Positions 5,131-16,499 of a stretch of DNA of 64,000 nucleotides are shown here, piece after piece. The stretch comes from Escherichia coli (GTDB lineage: Bacteria > Pseudomonadota > Gammaproteobacteria > Enterobacterales > Enterobacteriaceae). The stretch lies in assembly GCF_024502345.1 (NCBI RefSeq), contig NZ_JALDNN010000001.1. One strand, 5' to 3'. Both the position numbers and the translations under genes were made by a program. Within the stretch, counting starts at the first letter, position 1. The number at the start of each line of letters is the position of its first letter. The notes beneath the pieces were generated by a model. That model saw nothing but the letters and a program-made list of their open reading frames with translations, did no database searches and was not told the origin of the DNA.

Positions 5131-5163
5131 TTTTGGATGATGGCCGCCATGTGGTGGCCTGAA

Positions 5164-5466
5164 TTATTTTTTGTTCTGATCGCGCAGCATCGCCTCACGT
5201 AAAATTGCGTTCAGGCGAGTTTGATAGCCTTTACCAGGTCGCTTCAGCCATTCCATCACATCAGCATCAATACGCACCGAAGCCTGGGTTTTCAATGGCC
5301 GATAAAACTTACCGCGTTCTGCGTTAGACCATTGCTCATCGCTGGAAGGCGGGATATCACTGTAATCAATATCTTCGTCGGATTTATTCGCCAGTGCCTT
5401 CAGTTCGGCCTCATGCTGCACATCGAGTGTAGAGGGTGTCCCTCGTTTATGTTTAACCATGCTCAT
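5164..5466 (-). CDS. BrnA-like ribbon-helix-helix antitoxin-family protein (orphan; no BrnT gene seen)
   Basis: Track ORF 5164..5532; likely start at MSMVKHKRG with AGGAG RBS. C-terminal VRIDADVMEWLKRPGKGYQTRLNAILREAM matches my memory of the BrnA/COG3514 signature. Confidence 0.55.
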   Translation of the reverse strand: MSMVKHKRGTPSTLDVQHEAELKALANKSDEDIDYSDIPPSSDEQWSNAERGKFYRPLKTQASVRIDADVMEWLKRPGKGYQTRLNAILREAMLRDQNKK

Positions 5467-5604
5467 AGCGACTCCTCTCTTTACGATCTGCTTTTCGTGC
5501 ACTGATGATTCGAATGTTGGAAATAGCATCACGTTTTAGGAAAAGATGGGGAAGTTGATATGAAGGGGCTGGATGGCAACATTGGGACACCATCCAGCAC
5601 TTAT

Positions 5605-6339
5605 TCAAACCTGATAGCAATCCACCAAAAATGCCATCATTTCACTGGCATCTTTGCTGTGATAAAAGCGCACCATTTTGCTGTTGAACTCCAGCGCACG
5701 AGCCGCGGGTACACTAATGGGATTGTAACCGTGGCGCATTAACCAGCCGTTCATCATATGGCGACTGGTACGCTTGTTGCCATCAAAGAAAAACTGATAG
5801 TAGGCTCCAAAAAGGAACATCGCCAGCGCGCCTTCAAACGGGGAAAGCATTTTAATATGCGCGACACCCTCAGCAAAAATGCGATTCAGTTCAGGTGCAC
5901 CTGCTTCAGTGGCTGGTGGAAAATGAGTGCCCAGTTCACCGAGATGAACGCGGGCATTGTAATGTAACTCCTCACCTTCGCCGCGAAAAACGCCCCACTC
6001 CAGCGCCTCATTACGCGCAATAATGCCGTTAAGTAACGTGAACGTTTTCTTATCAAGGTCGAAACGCCCGGATTGCACAAGTTCAATCAGTTTTTTTGCG
6101 CTATCTGCCAGGTTCAACACCTGCTCTGTGTCACTGACCTTATGCCCGCCAATGGTGACACCATCGAGCAGCGTTTTAACTTCAACAAAGGTATAGGGGT
6201 TATTTTCCAGTTGCGCGGCATCCCAGACAAACCCAGCCATATGCGTTTTGAAGGTAAATAAGGCTGCGCGCGTACCGACAATTTGCATCGCCGGGATGGC
6301 ATTTGCATTCCAGCTCAGGTCCAGTAGTTTGGTTGTCAT
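5605..6339 (-). CDS. Fic/Doc (Fido)-fold-like protein with a non-canonical active-site motif (QFFFDGNKRTSR)
   Basis: 244-aa ORF with AAGGA RBS 8 nt upstream. ...AYYQFFFDGNKRTSRHMMNGWL aligns position-for-position with the Fic HPFx(D/E)GNGRxxR and Doc HxFx(D/N)(A/G)NKR motifs, but Gln occupies the catalytic His position. Family assignment by eye only. Confidence 0.5.
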   Translation of the reverse strand: MTTKLLDLSWNANAIPAMQIVGTRAALFTFKTHMAGFVWDAAQLENNPYTFVEVKTLLDGVTIGGHKVSDTEQVLNLADSAKKLIELVQSGRFDLDKKTFTLLNGIIARNEALEWGVFRGEGEELHYNARVHLGELGTHFPPATEAGAPELNRIFAEGVAHIKMLSPFEGALAMFLFGAYYQFFFDGNKRTSRHMMNGWLMRHGYNPISVPAARALEFNSKMVRFYHSKDASEMMAFLVDCYQV

Positions 6340-6382
6340 TAGAGGATCCTTGATTGCATGGTAAAGAGGATATTATTCCATA

Positions 6383-6568
6383 TTAAACCATCGCGTTATC
6401 CATCTGCTTTTCAAATGCCTGACGAATTAATCCCATCACATAAGGAAGCTCAGAAAGATCGCTGAAACCTACTTCAACATCGCCATTGCCCCAACGGCTT
6501 ATATCTGAGACGTCACGAGCAATACCTTTCGGATCGATCAATTCATGGAATGGCATGTTTAGCGTCAA
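6383..6568 (-). CDS. Small hypothetical protein (57-61 aa) between the GmrSD-like and Fic-like genes
   Basis: ORF whose TTG start overlaps the upstream gene stop by 4 nt (alternative ATG 12 nt downstream, MPFHELIDPKG...); no strong RBS; same strand as flanking genes. Coding status uncertain. Confidence 0.35.
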   Translation of the reverse strand: MTLNMPFHELIDPKGIARDVSDISRWGNGDVEVGFSDLSELPYVMGLIRQAFEKQMDNAMV

Positions 6569-8481
6569 ATGTAATCGTTTTTTTGCGGCACTGCATCAAC
6601 AAAATTCGTCTCCGCTTTGAAGGCAACATAGAGCTTCAATATTTCTCGCGTAACCCCAGCGTCCAGCGCCATAACGGCATCAGAAAGGCTGTCAAAAAGT
6701 ACGCGGATATGTGTACCTTCTTCAAGTTGCGGGAAATCAGCAAGGACATATCCCGTTCCTCGTTCAACGACGGTGCGATAACGAGCCAACACGTCTTCCG
6801 AAAGTTTGGGGATCGCCCAGACGTCTATTGCCAGCTCGGCCAGACGTTCCGCTCTCTTTTGTATCGCTGCACGATCCCATATTTCACATTGCCCTAACCC
6901 CGTGTTCAGGCGTAATGGACTTTCCTTAAAGCCACCTTTTATATCTCGTTTCTTCGCAAATGGACGGTCGCTGTAGCTTGAGTTATAGCCAGTTAACGTT
7001 AAATTACCCAACGTATGGAGCCACTTTTTATGGATTCGCTTCCATTCCGGACCAAGGTCATCGCGCCACTTCGCCGATAAATTAGGGTTCTGCGGCATGA
7101 TATGTTCAATCGTATATTCGTCTACGCAGACCCGTTCTTTACGACCGTGGTTTTCAAATCTGCGTAGCCAATAGCTGCGATTACGGAAGTTGTAGAGGTC
7201 GCGAGTTTTCAGTTCACGTTGAAATTCATCATCATCCGGGAAACGACGGTAGGAAGGCAGTTCCAGCAAATGCGCCGCAATGCTCTCCAGATAACGCTCT
7301 TTATCCAGCACTTTGTAAAACGTGGCGAAGGTTTTGGTAAATGAGTTGGTGGGAATGGCACAGACTGCGCGCCGGAAGATATACGACTCAATTAAACGCG
7401 TGGCACTTAAAAAATCCGCGGCAGAAAGGATCCCCTGTTTATAGTCGTGATAAAGCACCAACAGGAACGGCCATGCAGCATCAACTTTCAGCTGGCGTAG
7501 ATCCTGAAACGCCATCTTTAAGGTTTTATCCTTTTCGCTATCCAGCGCCATCGCACAAAAATAGTCAGCAAACGTACGAATATCCGCAACCAGCGCCTCC
7601 ATCCCGCTATCCATCACTCCTGGTTTTCGCGCATAGCGTTTAAAGGCTTCATAGACATCACCAATTCGCGGAATCTCACCTGTTTTTACCGTCAGGTAAT
7701 TACGCATAAAACTGTCGAAATAGTCAGTGTATCCCTTCTGACCAAATGCCAGCTCCATGGGCCGCCAGTAATCGTCGTACAGTTGGCTTTGATGTTCTGG
7801 CTCCAGCCCCATCAGAACATAGTTGCGTACCAGATCCGCCTGACTCAGCGCTTTTCCTGTTGAGTTCATGCTTTCAAAGATTAGTTGCGGATTATCCTGA
7901 CCGCGATTCAAGGCGACATCCACAATAAGCAGTTTGGAAAGTCCCTGACATAACGCGGTGAAATTGCCGTGGAGTTTGCCTATTTGCTCATGGAAAAACT
8001 CAAAATTCTCTTTCACGCGTAGAGAGCAATTTTCTGCCAGCGGTTTTTGTCTAATCAATGCCAGCAGGCTTTCTCTGTCCGTTTGCGTAAGCAGTAACTT
8101 AAAACCACGCTCGCCCGATTCATACGGATTGAGCAGATAATAGTTTCGTAATTTCATGGCGGAGAAACCATCCATCACCTCGTCATCACCAAGATGTCTG
8201 GACAACGCTTCCAGCAATAACATCGCCGTTGTTAGGCGTTGCTGACCGTCAATCACCAGTAAGGGAGAGATCCCCGAAACCTGATATAGGCCCTGTTCGA
8301 TATACACCACCGAGCCGATAAAATGCGCCGGGATATCATCACGCTGCCCGGCACGTATTACATCGTCCCAGAGCTGGCGGCACTGTTCCTCTGACCATGA
8401 ATAAGTACGCTGATAAATGGGAATAACGAATTGCTGAGAGCGTTTAAGAAAATCGAGTAATCGGGCTTCGGTGGCTTTCAT
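6565..8481 (-). CDS. GmrSD-family Type IV (modification-dependent) restriction endonuclease, single polypeptide (DUF262 + DUF1524)
   Basis: 638 aa; N-terminal FVIPIYQRTYSW and DGQQRLT motifs (DUF262/ParB-like NTPase); C-terminal EYTIEHIMPQ...HTLGNLTL...N His-Me finger signature (DUF1524); AGGAG RBS 7 nt upstream of the ATG. Confidence 0.8.
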   Translation of the reverse strand: MKATEARLLDFLKRSQQFVIPIYQRTYSWSEEQCRQLWDDVIRAGQRDDIPAHFIGSVVYIEQGLYQVSGISPLLVIDGQQRLTTAMLLLEALSRHLGDDEVMDGFSAMKLRNYYLLNPYESGERGFKLLLTQTDRESLLALIRQKPLAENCSLRVKENFEFFHEQIGKLHGNFTALCQGLSKLLIVDVALNRGQDNPQLIFESMNSTGKALSQADLVRNYVLMGLEPEHQSQLYDDYWRPMELAFGQKGYTDYFDSFMRNYLTVKTGEIPRIGDVYEAFKRYARKPGVMDSGMEALVADIRTFADYFCAMALDSEKDKTLKMAFQDLRQLKVDAAWPFLLVLYHDYKQGILSAADFLSATRLIESYIFRRAVCAIPTNSFTKTFATFYKVLDKERYLESIAAHLLELPSYRRFPDDDEFQRELKTRDLYNFRNRSYWLRRFENHGRKERVCVDEYTIEHIMPQNPNLSAKWRDDLGPEWKRIHKKWLHTLGNLTLTGYNSSYSDRPFAKKRDIKGGFKESPLRLNTGLGQCEIWDRAAIQKRAERLAELAIDVWAIPKLSEDVLARYRTVVERGTGYVLADFPQLEEGTHIRVLFDSLSDAVMALDAGVTREILKLYVAFKAETNFVDAVPQKNDYI

Positions 8482-8667
8482 GAATGACTCCTGTCAAATT
8501 GCACTGGCAAACGGCGTCATTATGCTGCGAATAAAAAATAAAAGTTAGCGTCTTTGTTTCTACAAAAATACCATTCCAGGATAAATCAAAATATATTAAG
8601 AAACACCTCAAAACGCATTCATTAGAGCAATTAATACTTCCAATTCATATTTATAACACATTGAAAA

Positions 8668-8688
8668 TGATCATGTTTTTGATCATCA
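8668..8688. promoter_or_regulatory. GATC-containing repeat TGATCATGTTTTTGATCATCA in the divergent gmrSD-like / hsdM intergenic region
   Basis: Two TGATCA palindromes (each holding a Dam GATC site) 12 bp apart in the AT-rich divergent promoter region. Function not established. Confidence 0.25.
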
Positions 8689-8756
8689 CAACGATAGTTT
8701 GATATAACAAAGCATTCACTTCACATTGAATATCTCCCTCTTTTTCAGGGCAAGGA

Positions 8757-11111
8757 ATGCTTTTTATGTCATCAACTAATTTCAGTCAGATCGCAGCCTT
8801 CCTGTGGTCTGTCGCCGACCTGTTACGCGGCGATTTTAAACAATCCCAATATGGGCGAATTATTCTCCCTTTCACTCTTCTTCGTCGTCTGGAATGCGTA
8901 CTCGAAACAACGAAAGACGCGGTCATTGCCGAGGCGCAAAAAGTAAAAGCCATGAAACTGCCGGAGGAAGCCCAGGAGAAAATGATCCTGCGGGCGACTA
9001 ATGGCCTCACGTTCTTTAATGCCTCAGCAATGGATCTCAGCAAAATGGGGCAAAATGGCATACAGGACAACCTGGAAAACTACATCCAGTCGTTCTCTTC
9101 GGATGCCCGCGAAATTTTCGAACACTTCAAGTTCAGCGAGTTTGTCGGACAGCTGGCGGATGCGAACTTACTGTTCAAAGTGGTGCAAATATTCGCTAAA
9201 GCAGATTTATACCCGGAGCACGTCACCAACCACGATATGGGGCTGGTATTTGAGGAGCTGATCCGACGTTTTGCCGAGAGTTCTAACGAAACCGCGGGGG
9301 AGCACTTTACCCCGCGTGATATCGTCAATCTGACCACCTCGCTGGTGTTTTTCGATGATGATGACGCGCTCAATAAAGACGGCATCATCCGCACCATTTA
9401 CGATCCAACGGCAGGAACCGGCGGCTTTCTCTCCTCCGGCATGGAGTTCGTCCACAAACAAAACCCCAATGCCGTGATGCGCGCGTTTGGTCAGGAGTTA
9501 AACCCGGAATCCTACGCCATCTGTAAAGCCGACATGCTGATTAAGGGCCAGGACGTCAGCCTTATCAAACTCGGCAACACCCTGTCCAACGATCAGCTCC
9601 CCGCAGAAAAATTCGATTACATGCTTTCTAATCCACCTTTCGGCGTGGACTGGAAAAAGATAGAAACCGACATCATCAACGAGCACAAACTCAAAGGTGC
9701 CGATGGTCGATTTGGCCCCGGCCTGCCCCGCGTCTCCGACGGTTCGTTGCTGTTTCTGCTTCACCTGATCAGCAAAATGCGCGATGCCAAAAGCGGTGGC
9801 GGGCGGATCGGCATCATTCTTAATGGTTCGCCGTTATTCACCGGCGGTGCAGGAAGCGGTGAAAGCGAGATCCGCCGCTACATTCTGGAAGCGGATTTGC
9901 TGGAAGGCATTATCGCCCTGCCCACCGACATGTTTTACAACACCGGTATCGCTACCTATGTGTGGATTTTGTCGAATAAAAAAGCGCCAGAACGCAAAGG
10001 CAAAGTCCAGCTTATTGACGGCAGCAACCTGTGCGGCAAGATGCGTAAATCGCTGGGGTCAAAACGCAATATTCTCGGAGACGAGGATATTGGTTTAATC
10101 ACCCGCACGTTTGGCGATTTCGAACCCGTTGCCACCACCACGCTTGCGGCGTTAGGCCTGGAGAAAGCACCTGAACAAAAATCCAGCCGGGGACGCCAGC
10201 CCGCAACAACCAAAACCGAGGCGGCAAAAACCTTTGCCAGCAAAGTCTTTCACAGCACCGAGTTTGGCTATCGTCGCATCACCGTTGAGCGCCCGTTACG
10301 CCTGTCGGCTCAGATCACCGATGACGCCATTGCCACATTACGCTTTGCGCCGAAGCCGTTTAACGCGCCGATGGCACAACTGTATGACGCCTTTGCTTTC
10401 CAGTGGCAGGACGGTAATTACGGCGACTTAACAGCGCTAGAAAGTGAAGCCCGCGCCATTCTTAAAGCCGATTTTAGCGAGCTGAAAGAGAAGCAAATTA
10501 AAGATCTGCTCGACAGCAAATTATGGCTGGCCCAGCGCGGATTAATGGAAAAAGCGCGGCGTATTCAGGCGGCGATGGGTATGCAGGCGGGCGGCAAAGA
10601 CACCGTTAGCAATAACTTTAATCTGTTCCAGTTGACGCTGAAAGAGGCGTTCAAAACCGCAGGCGTGAAGCTGGATGCGAAAGAGAACAAGCAGTTTATC
10701 GATGCCATCACCCGCAAAAACCCGGATGCCGAGCCGGTAATCAGCAAGGTACTGAAAGAGGCGGCCCAACCGCTGTATGGCGCGTGTGAGTACAACGGAA
10801 AGGTTGTGGAGTTTGAACCGGATGGCGACCTGCGCGATAACGAGAATGTACCGTTAAATCCGTCTGTATCTACCAGCGAGTTGATCGAGGGTTACTTCAA
10901 AGCAGAAGTGTTGCCGCACGTTGCGGATGCGTGGATTAACGCCGATAAGCGCGATGCGAAAGATGGGGATATCGGGATTGTGGGGTATGAAATTCCGTTT
11001 AATCGTCATTTTTATGTTTATCAGCCGCCAAGGCCGCTGGAGGAGATTGATGCGGATCTGGATGCGGTAAGCGCTGAGATTATGAAACTGTTGCAGGAGG
11101 TACATTCCTGA
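8757..11111 (+). CDS. hsdM: Type I restriction-modification system DNA methyltransferase subunit HsdM (long form, about 780 aa)
   Basis: NPPFG catalytic motif ([12 protein letters not shown]), AdoMet motif region ([10 protein letters not shown]), HsdM-like N-terminus ([31 protein letters not shown]). Alternative start at 8766 (MSSTNF) has better RBS spacing. About 270 aa C-terminal extension beyond a typical HsdM. Confidence 0.85.
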
Positions 11112-12385
11112 TGGCAGGGTTAAATAAATATCAGGCGTATCCGGAGTATAGGGATTCTGGGGTGGAGTGGTTGGGGGAGATTCCTGCTCATTGGGAAACG
11201 TTACAGCATAAATACGTCGCATATTATACTAAGGGCAAAAATCCTTCTTTTTTGCTCGATACCCCAACAAAGAACACCCTACCTTATCTTTCTATGGATT
11301 GTTTAAGAAATAACTCCATAGATAAATATGCTATAGTATCTAATGATATTCGTATTGCATTAGAGGGACAACCACTTATTATTTGGGATGGTTCTAATGC
11401 TGGGGAATTTGTCAAAGGCCGAAAAGGTATTTTATCCTCAACGATGGCCTCTGCAACGCTTAATTATCCTTTGCACATGCAATATTACTGGTATTTATGC
11501 ACTGCAATTGAATCTGAAATGCGTAAACATGCAAATGGTATGGGTATCCCTCATGTAAATGGAGAAGAATTAAAGAACATTCATCTAAGTATCCCTTCAA
11601 TAACCGAACAAAAAAGCATCGCTGGTTTTCTTGAATTTGAAACAACGAAAATTTCGAACCTTATAGAAAAACAACAACAACTAATTGAATTACTAAAAGA
11701 AAAACGTCAGGTCGTGATTAGCCATGCGGTCACAAAAGGGCTAAATCCTGACGTGCCGATGAAAGATTCTGGGGTTAAGTGGTTGGGGGAAGTTCCAAAA
11801 CACTGGCACATATGCAAGTTAAAATGGTTTGCTAATTTGAAAAGTGGTGATTTTATAACCAGCAATTCAATAGAACCAGAAGGAAACTATCCTGTATATG
11901 GTGGAAATGGATTAAGAGGATATTATTCTTATTTTACACACAATGGTGAATATGTTCTTATTGGTAGACAAGGTGCTCTTTGCGGAAATATAAATTACGC
12001 AATTGGAAAGTTTTGGGCTTCAGAACATGCTGTTGTTGTCACCCCAAACGAAAGAGCTGTTACAATATGGTTAGGAGAATTATTAAGAATAATGAACTTA
12101 AACCAATATTCAGTTTCTGCTGCACAACCGGGGCTTGCGGTTGAAAGAATTACTGATTTATATATTCCAATCCCACCATATCAAGAGCAAATAAATATCG
12201 GAACTTATATATCTAAATATATTTCTCTAGATAAAAAATTGATTGAGCATAGTACAGATAATATTGAACTCCTCAAAGAACGCCGCACCGCCCTTATCTC
12301 CGCCGCCGTCACCGGCAAAATTGATCTACGCAACTGGACCGCGCCCATCCCCGAAGCGGAAACACCCACGGAGGCCAGCGCATGA
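11111..12385 (+). CDS. hsdS: Type I restriction-modification specificity subunit HsdS (two target-recognition domains)
   Basis: Start overlaps hsdM stop (TGATG). Two repeated conserved segments (DSGVEWLGEIPAHWE / DSGVKWLGEVPKHW) each followed by a variable, AT-rich TRD; conserved central and C-terminal coiled regions (LIEKQQQLIELLKEKRQ / LIEHSTDNIELLKERRTALISAAVTGKIDL). Confidence 0.85.
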   Translation: MAGLNKYQAYPEYRDSGVEWLGEIPAHWETLQHKYVAYYTKGKNPSFLLDTPTKNTLPYLSMDCLRNNSIDKYAIVSNDIRIALEGQPLIIWDGSNAGEFVKGRKGILSSTMASATLNYPLHMQYYWYLCTAIESEMRKHANGMGIPHVNGEELKNIHLSIPSITEQKSIAGFLEFETTKISNLIEKQQQLIELLKEKRQVVISHAVTKGLNPDVPMKDSGVKWLGEVPKHWHICKLKWFANLKSGDFITSNSIEPEGNYPVYGGNGLRGYYSYFTHNGEYVLIGRQGALCGNINYAIGKFWASEHAVVVTPNERAVTIWLGELLRIMNLNQYSVSAAQPGLAVERITDLYIPIPPYQEQINIGTYISKYISLDKKLIEHSTDNIELLKERRTALISAAVTGKIDLRNWTAPIPEAETPTEASA

Positions 12386-15300
12386 GCCACGACATTACAA
12401 AAGAGGTTAACCTGCAAAACGACATCATCGCGCAGATGGTGGAAAAAGGCTGGATTGTCGGCAAAGGTGACGGCTACGACCGGGAACGTGCGCTATACGC
12501 ACAGGATACCTTAAACTTCGTGCAGACCACTCAAACGCAGGAGTGGGAGAAATTCGCCCGCGTTTACCCTAACGACCCAGAGCGCCATTTCCTCGACGCG
12601 CTGGTCGCGCAGCTTAAAAAAGCCGACAGCAACGCCACCGATATCCAGTCGCGCACCTGGGGTACGCTCGGCGTACTTCGCCACGGTCTGAAAATCCGCA
12701 ATGCCCGTTTTTCGCTGTGCCAGTTTAAACCGGAACACAACCTCAACCCGGAAACGCTGGCGCGCTATCAGCAAAATATCTGCCGTATCGTGCCGGAACT
12801 GGTCTACAGCCCTTATGCCTCAAATAGCGTCTTTGCAGAAACGGGCGTGAAAGCCAAAAAATGGCGCATCGACCTTGTGCTGTTTATCAACGGCCTGCCA
12901 ATTGCCACGCTGGAGCTGAAATCCGAATTTAAACAGGCGGTGCAGAACGCCATTGCGCAGTACAAAAAGACCCGCCTGCCGAAAGATCCCGCTACCAATA
13001 AACCTGAACCGCTGCTGGCCTTTAAGCGCGGGGCGCTGGTGCATTTTGCCGTCAGCCAGTATGACGTCTTTATGACCACCAAACTCGCAGGTGACAGCAC
13101 CTTCTTCCTGCCGTTTAACAAAGGCACCAAAGAAGGCGGTGCAGGCAATGAGATCCCCGAAGATACTCGCCGCTACGCCACCGATTATCTGTGGAATGAA
13201 GTGCTGCTGCCGGACAACTTATTAAAAATCCTCGCCAGTTTTGTCCATTTGCAGATTGAAGAAAAAGAGGAGTGGAACGGGCTGAAAGCGAAGAAAGAGA
13301 GCCTGATTTTCCCGCGCTATCACCAGTGGGATGTGGTCAACAAACTGCTGGAGGCTGCGACGGTCGAAGACACCGGCCATAAATACCTGATTCAGCACAG
13401 CGCAGGTTCCGGAAAGTCGAACTCCATTGCCTGGACCGCCCACCAGCTCTCTCGTCTGTACGACGCAAACGGGGAAAAACAGTTCCACTCCGTTATCGTG
13501 GTGACAGACCGCACGGTGCTGGACGACCAGCTTCAGGACACCATCTGGCAGTTCGAACATGCCGACGGCGTGGTCGGGCGCATCAATAACAGAGAGGGCG
13601 ACGGCTCTAAATCGGAAAAGCTCGCCAACGCGCTGGAAAACTCGCAACCGATTATTATTGTCACCATCCAGACGTTCCCGTTCGTATTGAAAGCTATCGA
13701 AAACAGTGTCAGCCTGAAGCAGCGTAAATACGCGGTAATCGCCGATGAAGCGCACTCCTCGCAGAGCGGTTCTACCGCCCGTCAGCTCAAAGAAGTGCTG
13801 ATGAGCGAAGAGATGGATGATGACGTGGTACTGTCGTCAGAAGATATTCTGGATGCGACCATCGCCGCACGGAAAGGTAGCAGTAACCTGAACTACTATG
13901 CCTTTACCGCCACGCCCAAATCCAAAACCCTGGAACTTTTTGGTCGCCGTCCACGTCCCGATGAACCGGCGTCAAAAACCAATAAACCTGAGGCCTTCCA
14001 CGTCTACTCCATGCGCCAGGCAATCGAAGAAGGCTTTATCCTCGACGTGCTGAAAAACTACACCAACTACAAAGTGGCGTATCAGTTGCTGCAAAAGCTG
14101 GAAGATGAAGACCGCGAAGTCGATAGCAAACGGGCGAAGGTAAAACTCAATCAGTGGGTGACACTGCACGACCACAATATCTCGCAGAAGGTGAAGGTGA
14201 TTGTGGAGCACTTCCGCAAACATGTGATGCATCTGCTTGGCGGCCAGGCTAAAGCGATGGTGGTCACCAGTTCACGCAAAGCCGCCGTGCGCTATAAGCT
14301 GGCATTTGATAAATACATTAGCGAGAACAATTACCAGAAAATCAGCGCGATGGTGGCGTTTTCCGGGGAAGTTGAATTCCGGGAAGGCGACCCTAACAGC
14401 CTGGCATTGTTAAACCAGAAATTTACTGAAATAAACATGAACCCCGGCCTGAAAGGACGGGATATGCGCAAAGCCTTCGACAGCGACGATTACCAAGTCA
14501 TGCTGGTCGCCAATAAATTCCAGACCGGTTTTGACCAGCCGAAGCTGTGCGCGATGTACGTGGATAAAGCCCTCGGCGGCGTCGAGTGTGTGCAGACGCT
14601 CTCCCGCCTGAACCGCACCTATCCGGGCAAAGCGGAATCTGGCACTTTTGTCCTCGATTTTTATAATGATCCGGACGAGATCCTCGGCGCATTCCAGCCC
14701 TATTTCCAGACGGCGGAACTGACCGATGTCAGCGATCCGCAGCAGGTATTCGATCTGTTTGAAAAACTGCGCGCCACGCAGATTTTTCAGTGGCATGAAG
14801 TCGAGCAGTTCTGCGAGGCATACTTCATCAAAAATAAATCGAATGCGGCGATCAGTAATATTTGCAAACCGGCGGTCGAACGCTGGAAAAAGCGTTATCT
14901 GATGGCGATAGACGCCTATTTGACCGCCAAAGAGATGTTCGAGCGCACCAAAAAAACGGGCGATACAGTATTAATCACCAATGCGGAAAACAGTTTTAAA
15001 GCCTGTAAGCAGGAGAAAGATCGTCTGGAAATATTCAAAAAAGATCTCGGCAGCTTTGTTCGTTTTTATGAATTTATGTCGCAGATCGTTGAATACGATG
15101 ACAAGGATCTGGAAAAGCTAAGCCTGTTTGCTCGTCATCTGCGTCCGCTGCTGCATGAGCAACGTCTGGAAGATGATGAAATTGATCTCAGTAATGTGGA
15201 GATGAGTCACTATCGTTTATCGAAAATCCATGAGCAAGATTTACGCTTACAGGAAGAAACGCCTGACTATACGCTGGATGCAAGTAATAATATTGGTACG

Positions 15301-15645
15301 GCAAAAGCGAAAGATAAAAAAGAGGAGTTTTTATCTCAGGTGCTTTCTCGGATGAATGAATTATTCATTAGTGACCATTTGACCGACAAAGATATGATCA
15401 GCAATGCTTTTTCGGTGTATAACAAAATAACTGAAAATGAAAATGTTATGACACAAATTAAAAACAATCCCCCAGAACAAGCGATTCTTGGTGATTTCCT
15501 CCAGGCAGTTGATAATGCTGTAATGGACAGTAATGACGCTCGGCAAGAATTCATGTTGCAATATTTATCCGATCCAGCTCGGGCAAAGGGCTTTGCTTAT
15601 CTGATGTTTGATATGCTAACGGGGAAAATTGCTTTGCCAACATAA
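12382..15645 (+). CDS. hsdR: Type I restriction enzyme endonuclease/translocase subunit HsdR
   Basis: 4-nt start/stop overlap with hsdS (ATGA). N-terminal PD-(D/E)xK motif (RIDLVLFINGLPIATLELKS), Walker A (HSAGSGKSNS), DEAH box (VIADEAHSSQ). 1087 aa. Confidence 0.85.
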   Translation: MSHDITKEVNLQNDIIAQMVEKGWIVGKGDGYDRERALYAQDTLNFVQTTQTQEWEKFARVYPNDPERHFLDALVAQLKKADSNATDIQSRTWGTLGVLRHGLKIRNARFSLCQFKPEHNLNPETLARYQQNICRIVPELVYSPYASNSVFAETGVKAKKWRIDLVLFINGLPIATLELKSEFKQAVQNAIAQYKKTRLPKDPATNKPEPLLAFKRGALVHFAVSQYDVFMTTKLAGDSTFFLPFNKGTKEGGAGNEIPEDTRRYATDYLWNEVLLPDNLLKILASFVHLQIEEKEEWNGLKAKKESLIFPRYHQWDVVNKLLEAATVEDTGHKYLIQHSAGSGKSNSIAWTAHQLSRLYDANGEKQFHSVIVVTDRTVLDDQLQDTIWQFEHADGVVGRINNREGDGSKSEKLANALENSQPIIIVTIQTFPFVLKAIENSVSLKQRKYAVIADEAHSSQSGSTARQLKEVLMSEEMDDDVVLSSEDILDATIAARKGSSNLNYYAFTATPKSKTLELFGRRPRPDEPASKTNKPEAFHVYSMRQAIEEGFILDVLKNYTNYKVAYQLLQKLEDEDREVDSKRAKVKLNQWVTLHDHNISQKVKVIVEHFRKHVMHLLGGQAKAMVVTSSRKAAVRYKLAFDKYISENNYQKISAMVAFSGEVEFREGDPNSLALLNQKFTEINMNPGLKGRDMRKAFDSDDYQVMLVANKFQTGFDQPKLCAMYVDKALGGVECVQTLSRLNRTYPGKAESGTFVLDFYNDPDEILGAFQPYFQTAELTDVSDPQQVFDLFEKLRATQIFQWHEVEQFCEAYFIKNKSNAAISNICKPAVERWKKRYLMAIDAYLTAKEMFERTKKTGDTVLITNAENSFKACKQEKDRLEIFKKDLGSFVRFYEFMSQIVEYDDKDLEKLSLFARHLRPLLHEQRLEDDEIDLSNVEMSHYRLSKIHEQDLRLQEETPDYTLDASNNIGTAKAKDKKEEFLSQVLSRMNELFISDHLTDKDMISNAFSVYNKITENENVMTQIKNNPPEQAILGDFLQAVDNAVMDSNDARQEFMLQYLSDPARAKGFAYLMFDMLTGKIALPT

Positions 15646-15710: not shown

Positions 15711-16424
15711 ATGCTGAAGATGATTAAAGATTTTAAATTCAAAAAATACATTAAAAAATTACGTGAAGAAGGTTTGTTATTTTATGTTTCTTTCGGGTTT
15801 ATATTTACATTGTTAATGGAAGTTGATGATCGATTACCGTACTATCTTCAACAAGACTTCTTTTTTTATACACTTATAGGATTTATGCCAATCAATATAT
15901 TCTTTGTTTTGATTTGCACATATATATTTTTCAATGCCGTCCATGCGCTTATTTCACCATATAAATTTCAAAGAATTGGTGAGAAATTCCTCTCTGAACT
16001 TGATAAAAGAACACAACAAATTGGCTTTATTATTTCATTCATATGTTTTGGCATGACTTTGTTTTGTGCACTGGTGTGGTTGCTGTTTTTTGAAATGAAT
16101 ACTGAAAGTTACTACGCAAAATATACATTAAATTTTTTAGCTGCTTTTATCATTATGATTATAATTTCTTCAGTAGTTAATCCAGTAATGAACAGAACAT
16201 TCCAAAAAATGAAGGAATCGGACTCACATGGAAATTCAAAAATAATTCTTATAATTATAATCATTATATTGTTGCTATTATTACCAATTGCGTGCATTAT
16301 CAATAAAAATAAAACAATTGAAATCAATATTAAGAAAGAAACCTATCAGCAAATAAAAGAAAAAACAAAGATAAAACCAGAAGATTATATCAAAAAATTG
16401 ATTACTGATATTAAATTCAACTAA
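15711..16424 (+). CDS. Hypothetical AT-rich integral membrane protein (about 4 predicted TM segments, Lys-rich termini)
   Basis: 237-aa ORF 65 nt downstream of hsdR with AAGGAA RBS; strongly AT-rich; hydrophobic stretches (FYVSFGFIFTLLM, IGFMPINIFFVLICTYIFF, IGFIISFICFGMTLFCALVWLLFF, NFLAAFIIMIIISSVV, ILIIIIIILLLLLPIACII). No recognisable family. Confidence 0.6.
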   Translation: MLKMIKDFKFKKYIKKLREEGLLFYVSFGFIFTLLMEVDDRLPYYLQQDFFFYTLIGFMPINIFFVLICTYIFFNAVHALISPYKFQRIGEKFLSELDKRTQQIGFIISFICFGMTLFCALVWLLFFEMNTESYYAKYTLNFLAAFIIMIIISSVVNPVMNRTFQKMKESDSHGNSKIILIIIIIILLLLLPIACIINKNKTIEINIKKETYQQIKEKTKIKPEDYIKKLITDIKFN

Positions 16425-16428
16425 TATC

Positions 16429-16463
16429 TATATGTACCCTGGTTTCTTCCAGGGTACATATAA
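16429..16463. terminator. Perfect hairpin between the membrane-protein gene and convergent yjiS (possible bidirectional terminator)
   Basis: tatatgtaccctgg-tttcttc-cagggtacatata inverted repeat; no clean U-tract on the plus strand. Confidence 0.35.
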
Positions 16464-16499
16464 AAAGTTAATATCCTGATTTATTCTCAACATCCTCTA

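Follow-up and report, generated by a model that had tools for sequence, protein, structure and literature searches.

The locus described here raises the question of whether a Type I restriction-modification (R-M) cassette with an overlong methylase subunit, an hsdM-hsdS-hsdR (M-S-R) gene order and an AT-rich right end is an unusual system or an ordinary member of its family. It lies in a stretch of 64,000 nucleotides from Escherichia coli (contig NZ_JALDNN010000001.1 of assembly GCF_024502345.1; hereafter the window), in which three co-oriented open reading frames (ORFs), all on the plus strand at 8757..11111, 11111..12385 and 12382..15645, are assigned by Pfam to HsdM, HsdS and HsdR. We consider, with a probability of roughly 0.85, that they form an intact and probably functional M-S-R Type I R-M cassette in E. 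coli's immigration control region (ICR), that the cassette comes from a very widespread family with long HsdM proteins, and that the excess of its HsdM would be an insertion placed before a canonical tail. The system is an ordinary one: the features that a preliminary description, made from the letters of the window, had flagged as odd are the norm of its family, which lies outside types IA-ID.

The Pfam domains and motifs of the three subunits confirm the initial assignment to Type I. In HsdM (numbering of the 784-residue ORF), HsdM_N spans 12-146 and N6_Mtase 158-458 (E=1.3e-57), and both catalytic motifs are intact (DPTAGTGGF at 213, motif I, DPxxGxGGF; NPPF at 289, motif IV); no Pfam match was obtained in ~460-784 of this ORF. 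The true start of hsdM is the ATG at 8766, giving 781 residues, and not 8757 (784 residues), because RefSeq uses that ATG in a 99.9%-identical genome and homologues begin M-x-N-T-N-F-S-Q. The N-terminal ~470 residues superpose on the solved HsdMs of PacII, S. thermophilus, EcoKI and EcoR124I, with template modelling scores (TM-scores) of 0.66-0.72 when normalised to target length. In HsdS, Methylase_S was found in two stretches, and the PADLOC profile Specificity_I scored 360 bits over residues 5-412. HsdR combines the Pfam domains HSDR_N, ResIII/SWI2_SNF2 and T1R_D3(-like) with a PD-(D/E)xK nuclease motif (D164...E178-L-K180) and the motor motifs of superfamily 2 (GSGKS 342, DEAH 455, TAT 509 and QTLSRLNR 738, of the form QxxSRxNR). 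The experimentally characterised M-S-R systems of Vibrio cholerae VPI-2 and Pseudomonas aeruginosa PAO1 were considered as possible members of the family; in that comparison the catalytic lysine is numbered K172, against K180 in this HsdR. The C-terminal region of HsdR (~800-1087) is family-specific and has no Pfam match, and the protein aligns full length (99%) to relatives at 40-84% identity.

As the Pfam domains and all catalytic motifs are present and the three ORFs are full length, the system is probably an intact, functional Type I R-M system. By analogy with solved Type I enzymes, HsdS and two HsdM subunits would assemble into an M2S1 methyltransferase, whose two target recognition domains (TRDs) would define the bipartite target to be methylated; binding of HsdR would then yield an ATP-driven translocating endonuclease acting on unmethylated targets.

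The cassette is located in the chromosomal ICR, between yjiA and yjiS. The window shows 99.9% identity to E. coli NZ_CP104123 (strain USDA-ARS-USMARC-49610), where the cassette has the same yjiA..yjiS placement, and carriers amount to 116 of 5,426 complete E. coli genomes (~2%; for example GCF_025200675.1). All of these copies are chromosomal, and 114 show at least 95% identity. A system of the long-HsdM family is also found at the ICR in at least one Citrobacter genome examined. When the cassette was compared by BLAST with that of E. coli ZH063, a strain of sequence type 131 (ST131), the only unalignable stretch was 11171-11626, within hsdS, and the rest was ~96% identical. TRD exchange is the usual route of specificity change in Type I systems, and the TRD1 difference suggests that this strain and ZH063 should have different recognition half-sites.

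How unusual is the length of HsdM? The preliminary description had noted some 270 extra C-terminal residues. HsdM is indeed ~250-290 residues longer than EcoKI-type HsdM, but this is not unusual, being the standard length of a very large family with a PADLOC/REBASE-derived profile. The best 120 database homologues are nearly all of 780-789 residues and, aligned across 99-100% of the query, are at least 81% identical to it; their hosts are Citrobacter, Salmonella, Serratia, Yersinia, Klebsiella, Pantoea, Xenorhabdus, Cronobacter, Enterobacter and Vibrio. Used by themselves as a query, the 326 C-terminal residues matched 2,413 clusters in a 50%-identity protein library (1,021 at E<=1e-10), and among the matches listed of near full length (~640-800 residues) the extension sits at the C-terminal end. 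The HsdM C-terminal region has matches on 817 plasmids, 522 of them from Klebsiella and including pKpQIL; HsdR matches 803 plasmids, with nearly the same genus counts. The PADLOC MTase_I profile PDLC03029 aligns with HsdM end to end (residues 2-780 against positions 2-660 of 661, 928 bits), the C-terminal 296 residues alone scoring 193 bits over positions 453-660, and lengths of 650-1,200 positions are found in many of the other Type I methylase profiles of PADLOC. Since long HsdM is standard across a large family and PADLOC profiles are long, these comparisons indicate that 500-530 residues is typical of the classical E. coli families and not of HsdM in general.

The family reaches well beyond these hosts. 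A one-genome-per-species collection was scanned with a degenerate DNA pattern encoding the tail motif GYEIxF(N/T)RxFY, with positions taken from 120 other genomes. Among the matches listed, the motif occurs in Actinomycetota, Bacteroidota, Chloroflexota, Planctomycetota, Bacillota, Cyanobacteria, several proteobacterial classes and one archaeon; its median distance from the ORF end is 42 residues, in ORFs with a median stop-to-stop length of ~680 codons, and NPPF/Y/W is present in 72 of the 81 bounded ORFs. The hallmarks of the family are the M-S-R order, an HsdR of ~1082-1087 residues with its own C-terminal region, and an HsdM of ~645-800 residues.

A contig from a metagenome-assembled genome of Anaerolineae (JAKLPW010000446.1, 8431-9343) has three copies of the tail motif (GYEISFNRxFYKPQPLRSLEEIRADI...) in ~900 bp. 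The ORFs around two of the three are short (86 and 60 codons), and the copies may represent hsdM 3' ends that were duplicated in tandem or have degenerated.

The overlapping genes and the M-S-R order were as initially described: hsdM and hsdS overlap by 1 nt (tcc-TGATG-gca), and hsdS and hsdR by 4 nt (gcgcATGAgcc). The suggestion that this order is unusual does not hold, since EcoMII (type ID) and every relative fetched share it, namely those of Serratia, Xenorhabdus, Citrobacter, Klebsiella, a Vibrio campbellii plasmid, pKpQIL and an E. coli IncFIB plasmid. EcoMII, from the ICR of E. coli EC958, has its genes in the order hsdM-hsdS-hsdR and was termed a 'typical type I operon' by its authors (PMC4659465). 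The layout is M(786-787)-S-R(1082) in Serratia, Xenorhabdus and Klebsiella, with an M of 781 and an R of 1085 residues in Citrobacter, and these four close chromosomal relatives have the same 1-nt and 4-nt overlaps. The hsdM/hsdS stop-start overlap is also found in EcoKI and EcoCFTI (PMC3510504). Overlaps are not kept in all distant relatives, the V. campbellii plasmid system having gaps of 124 and 79 nt. On the E. coli IncFIB plasmid NZ_CP110979.1, a distant relative with an HsdM of 809 residues has a DUF4268 gene (8256-9419) between hsdS and hsdR, a further case of a Type I operon with an accessory gene inside it.

To which Type I family does the system belong? What defines such families is complementation, together with high similarity in sequence. 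Reference sequences were taken from annotated genomes for type IA (EcoKI, MG1655), type IB (EcoCFTI, CFT073) and type ID (EcoMII, EC958), and the EcoR124 chains of the PDB represented type IC. Identity was 27% for HsdM and 23% for HsdR with EcoKI; 26% for HsdM with EcoCFTI, whose HsdR aligned at 31% over 81 residues only; and 28% for HsdM and 24% for HsdR with EcoMII. Against EcoR124, phmmer gave 95 bits for HsdM and 45 bits for HsdR. All of these values fall short of the similarity at which subunits are exchanged. The alignment to type IA-ID references that had been proposed thus yielded 23-31% identity or weak scores, and by these comparisons the system is none of IA, IB, IC and ID. The preliminary description had allowed that alignment might reveal this HsdM to have the standard length of an established family; this is largely the case, but the family is not one of IA-ID.

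Type ID membership had first been assumed, since a recent review lists only types IA, IB and ID at the enterobacterial ICR (PMC12707154), and was rejected on the 24-28% identity to the EC958 system. EcoMII serves here as a proxy for type ID through a link taken from the literature: its HsdR is reported to be 92% identical to that of StySBLI, the type ID prototype (PMC4659465). It resembles the present system in its ICR site, its gene order and its HsdR of 1087 residues, and gives the best HsdM score among the classical families (148 bits). It differs in that its HsdM, of 539 residues, lacks the insertion, and in that its hsdS and hsdR are 94 nt apart instead of overlapping. EcoKI (IA), EcoAI/EcoCFTI (IB) and EcoR124I (IC) have the same Type I architecture and subunit motifs as the present system, but, besides their low identity or weak scores, their HsdMs are of 489-529 residues, the gene order of IA and IB is R-M-S, and the HsdR of EcoCFTI has 810 residues against 1087 here. 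The system of the pKpQIL-type IncFIB(pQil)/IncFII plasmids of Klebsiella pneumoniae, on the other hand, belongs to the same wider family: it is M-S-R, its HsdM has the same hairpin, beta subdomain and tail, and its HsdR (1085 residues) aligns over 99% of its length. It differs in identity (46% for HsdM, 41% for HsdR), in its HsdM of 675 residues, which is of the short helical class, and in being plasmid-borne.

A further candidate is type IE, whose prototype is KpnBI of K. pneumoniae GM236 and in which a long HsdM would already have been documented. Klebsiella chromosomes carry 786-residue HsdM homologues at 82% identity to ours, and KpnBI reportedly has an unusually long hsdM, a one-base hsdM/hsdS overlap and subunits 25-33% identical to those of IA-ID, a range that agrees with the identities measured here. 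However, its hsdM is reportedly of 2631 bp (876 residues), which disagrees with the 2346-2364 bp found here, although that figure may conceal a digit transposition (2361 bp = 786 residues). PADLOC also has Type I methylase profiles with 810-932 positions, each of which could equally be the KpnBI family and matches only about the first 430-455 residues of HsdM. Among the cluster members, a search for a sequence named KpnBI met generic names only. We regard type IE membership as possible, though rather unlikely.

Where the extra residues of HsdM lie was determined from two alignments (A1 and A2) and two AlphaFold2 (AF2) models. The model of the C-terminal region alone reached a predicted local distance difference test (pLDDT) of 92.6 and a predicted template modelling score (pTM) of 0.76; for full-length HsdM these values were 87.4 and 0.78, with residues 471-483 below a pLDDT of 50. 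Conservation is concentrated in a hairpin, a beta subdomain and the tail (Table 1), and the motifs FGYxxxxVxRPLR at residue 500 and GYEIxF(N/T)RxFY at 740-750 are invariant or nearly so in A1 and A2. Between the hairpin and the beta core the proteins fall into two size classes, with ~95 residues in proteins of 645-685 residues (e.g. pKpQIL) and 150-187 in proteins of 725-800 residues (e.g. this HsdM); the stretch counts ~99 residues in the pKpQIL HsdM against 174 here. The domain search that had been suggested for this region found no match in Pfam, NCBIfam or PDB, and in PADLOC only the profile of its own family. Foldseek gave no match with E<1, and a literature search on the HsdM C-terminal extension found nothing relevant.

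The tail itself (Y-x-I-x-F-x-R-x-F-Y followed by a helix) resembles, by eye, those of EcoMII, EcoCFTI and EcoKI, that of EcoMII being NDYVLTPGRYV and then a helix. In solved Type I enzymes the canonical HsdM tail packs on the HsdS coiled coil. The extra residues of HsdM would therefore most aptly be seen as an insertion that separates the catalytic domain from a retained canonical tail, and not as a domain bolted onto the terminus.

The most likely role of this insertion, which we put forward with low confidence, would be a structural one, as a family-specific contact surface in the holoenzyme, for instance with the HsdR C-terminal region or with DNA. We favour it because of the co-distribution of HsdM and HsdR and of the conservation pattern. 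A more specific proposal, in which the insertion (basic hairpin plus acidic beta-rich subdomain) and the HsdR C-terminal region would form a distinct M-R docking or control interface, setting assembly and restraint of restriction where hsdR has no separate promoter, is a speculative one to which we give a small probability. If true, it would imply a mode of holoenzyme assembly or regulation unlike those of EcoKI and EcoR124I, in a very common family that includes the pKpQIL system.

The insertion could instead be a functional add-on, either a sensor or shield against anti-restriction proteins (DNA mimics of the Ocr/ArdA type) or a regulator of restriction where hsdR lacks a promoter of its own. 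The region is conserved (acidic beta-rich subdomain, basic hairpin) and confidently folded and has no structural neighbours, and in close relatives hsdR is tied into the operon by the 4-nt overlap, so that a separate hsdR promoter is not available for controlling restriction when the system enters a new host. However, Pfam, NCBIfam, PADLOC and PDB gave no similarity to a known sensor, protease-recruitment or anti-restriction-binding domain; it is the helical module that varies most and is the most dispensable, and the conserved parts flank the canonical tail, a pattern that fits a structural role better; and the hsdS/hsdR overlap is not universal in the wider family (gaps in V. campbellii, DUF4268 insertion on the E. 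coli plasmid). An add-on thus seems improbable, and of the roles initially proposed for the extension (assembly, regulation, anti-anti-restriction), we found nothing pointing specifically to anti-anti-restriction.

The AT-richer 3' end of hsdR, the last of the features noted at the outset, was readily recovered. Per 300 bp, GC is 0.50-0.58 over the first 2.4 kb of the gene and then 0.42, 0.41 and 0.39; GC content at third codon positions (GC3), at 0.61-0.75, falls to 0.53 and 0.40 from nt 14782. The drop in GC3 implies that the shift is not only one of amino-acid composition. The hsdR genes of Citrobacter, Klebsiella, Serratia and Xenorhabdus dip in GC at the same place (0.42-0.50), the E. coli allele being the deepest, so part of the AT-richness is a family trait. 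The last ~135 HsdR residues (after residue 950) are the most diverged, sharing 48-76% identity with relatives where the 800 residues before them share 78-100%. AT-richness is seen in hsdS as well (GC 0.39, GC3 0.31), and hsdR abuts a very AT-rich ORF at 15711-16424. The AT-rich end would combine a family-wide compositional dip over the C-terminal helical region with a lineage-specific diverged tail; most likely, the right end of the cassette would have been exchanged, or have diverged, in this lineage.

Could this end instead be a recombination scar that damages HsdR, in a cassette that is a decaying or inactive remnant? The divergence and the low GC3 (~0.40) of the last ~135 residues could be read in this way, as could the frameshift that the neighbouring gmrSD gene carries in the window. 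Yet HsdR aligns to relatives right to its end (up to residue 1081 of 1087 with the Serratia and V. campbellii proteins, and up to 1079 with that of pKpQIL), so that there is no sign of damage; the same tail is found at ~96% DNA identity in other E. coli carriers, the dip recurs in the four other genera examined, and none of the three hsd ORFs is shortened or has lost its motifs. A remnant is very improbable, and an intact cassette is the reading that we retain.

Two observations concern the same end of HsdR. Residues 1005-1082 (15394-15627), within the last ~80 residues, resemble the C-terminus of PDC-S15, a candidate defence protein of PADLOC (E ~1e-7). On a Pseudomonas fragi plasmid, a stretch that carries no annotation (6001-6660 of the piece examined) and is flanked by kfrB and a phosphoribosyl transferase gene shows 34% identity to HsdR residues 865-1085. 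The HsdR C-terminal region may, by these matches, occur as an independent module.

As for expression, the three genes would be read as one transcript from the region upstream of hsdM. Shine-Dalgarno-type sequences are embedded in the preceding gene, AGGAGG 10 nt 5' of the hsdS ATG and GGAGG 6 nt 5' of the hsdR ATG, and together with the stop/start overlaps they would couple translation of the hsd genes. A simple sigma-70 scan gave no site at threshold in 8482..8765, upstream of hsdM, and its matches were not above chance, with none upstream of hsdR. The overlaps and the absence of an above-chance promoter-like site before hsdR are consistent with a single operon.

Several points weigh against the reading developed here. 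The promoter scan is silent before hsdR, but equally silent before hsdM. The identification of the terminal HsdM helix as the HsdS-binding helix comes from motif resemblance by eye and not from a model of the complex, and the co-occurrence of the HsdM and HsdR C-terminal regions consists only of similar genus counts in two separate searches. Finally, no experimentally characterised member of the close family was identified with the tools used.

Table 1. Features of the hsd cassette and of its HsdM (nucleotide positions in the window, residues where given as aa).
Feature	Position	Strand	Basis or remarks
Presumed hsd promoter region; divergent intergenic, gmrSD (-) / hsdM (+)	8482..8765	.	AT-rich, GC ~0.40; presumed promoter, from position
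hsdM	8766..11111	+	781 aa; start from RefSeq annotation and homologues
HsdM_N domain	HsdM aa 1-150	+	Pfam
N6-adenine methyltransferase domain	HsdM aa 151-460	+	Pfam, motifs
Linker	HsdM aa 461-488		variable, disordered
HsdM C-terminal region	10230..11108 (aa 489-781)	+	alignments and AF2
Beta-hairpin	HsdM aa 489-518		conserved, basic
Helical module	HsdM aa 519-648		poorly conserved, variable length
Beta-rich subdomain	HsdM aa 649-741		conserved, acidic; EPDxDLRDxENVPL ... PHVxDAWI
Tail	HsdM aa 742-781		terminal helix 758-780
hsdS	11111..12385	+	424 aa, two target recognition domains
HsdS TRD1	~11171-11626	+	BLAST gap against ZH063; no detectable DNA similarity to ZH063 allele
hsdR	12382..15645	+	1087 aa
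AT-rich 3' part of hsdR	14782..15645	+	GC, GC3; encodes C-terminal helical region

On its left side the cassette adjoins a Type IV restriction gene of the gmrSD family (6382-8481, minus strand), which is frameshifted near its 3' end in the window. It ends there in PQKNDYI*, at 638 residues, whereas the 99.9%-identical strain and ZH063 have an in-frame gene of 699 residues (PQKKRLHL...). The frameshift is an apparent 1-nt change in an A-run and may be a sequencing error or a real truncation; the truncated product keeps both the GmrSD_N and GmrSD_C Pfam domains. Between yjiA and gmrSD, a brnA antitoxin gene without its brnT toxin partner adjoins a Fic-family gene of 244 residues (5605-6339), both within ~5160-6340 on the minus strand, and EC958 and Citrobacter have an intact brnT-brnA pair at the position of this lone brnA.

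On the right side, the AT-rich ORF at 15711-16424 (plus strand, 237 residues) begins 65 nt 3' of hsdR and has a GC of 0.26-0.34 and a GC3 of 0.27. Its product is rich in Lys, Ile and Phe, with hydrophobic stretches; it had no Pfam match above the curated cut-off, no PADLOC match, and two NCBIfam matches far below cut-off. No terminator was predicted between hsdR and this ORF, and a hairpin with a 16-bp stem follows it at 16427-16464; it may be co-transcribed with the hsd genes. The ORF is kept at this position in the E. coli carriers, and its place is taken by a DUF5655 gene in Citrobacter and by mcrBC in Serratia and Klebsiella.

By itself, the locus contributes little, being one more allele of a Type I system that is annotated routinely, in a defence island already well known. 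Its family, however, is present at the ICR in ~2% of complete E. coli genomes although it lies outside the three families listed for that site in the review (PMC12707154). Moreover, the ~290 additional HsdM residues have a confident predicted fold but no Pfam family, solved relative or assigned role, and they are conserved in thousands of Type I methylases from many phyla, including those of epidemic Klebsiella plasmids. In this mature field, a holoenzyme structure from the long-HsdM family would close a real gap.

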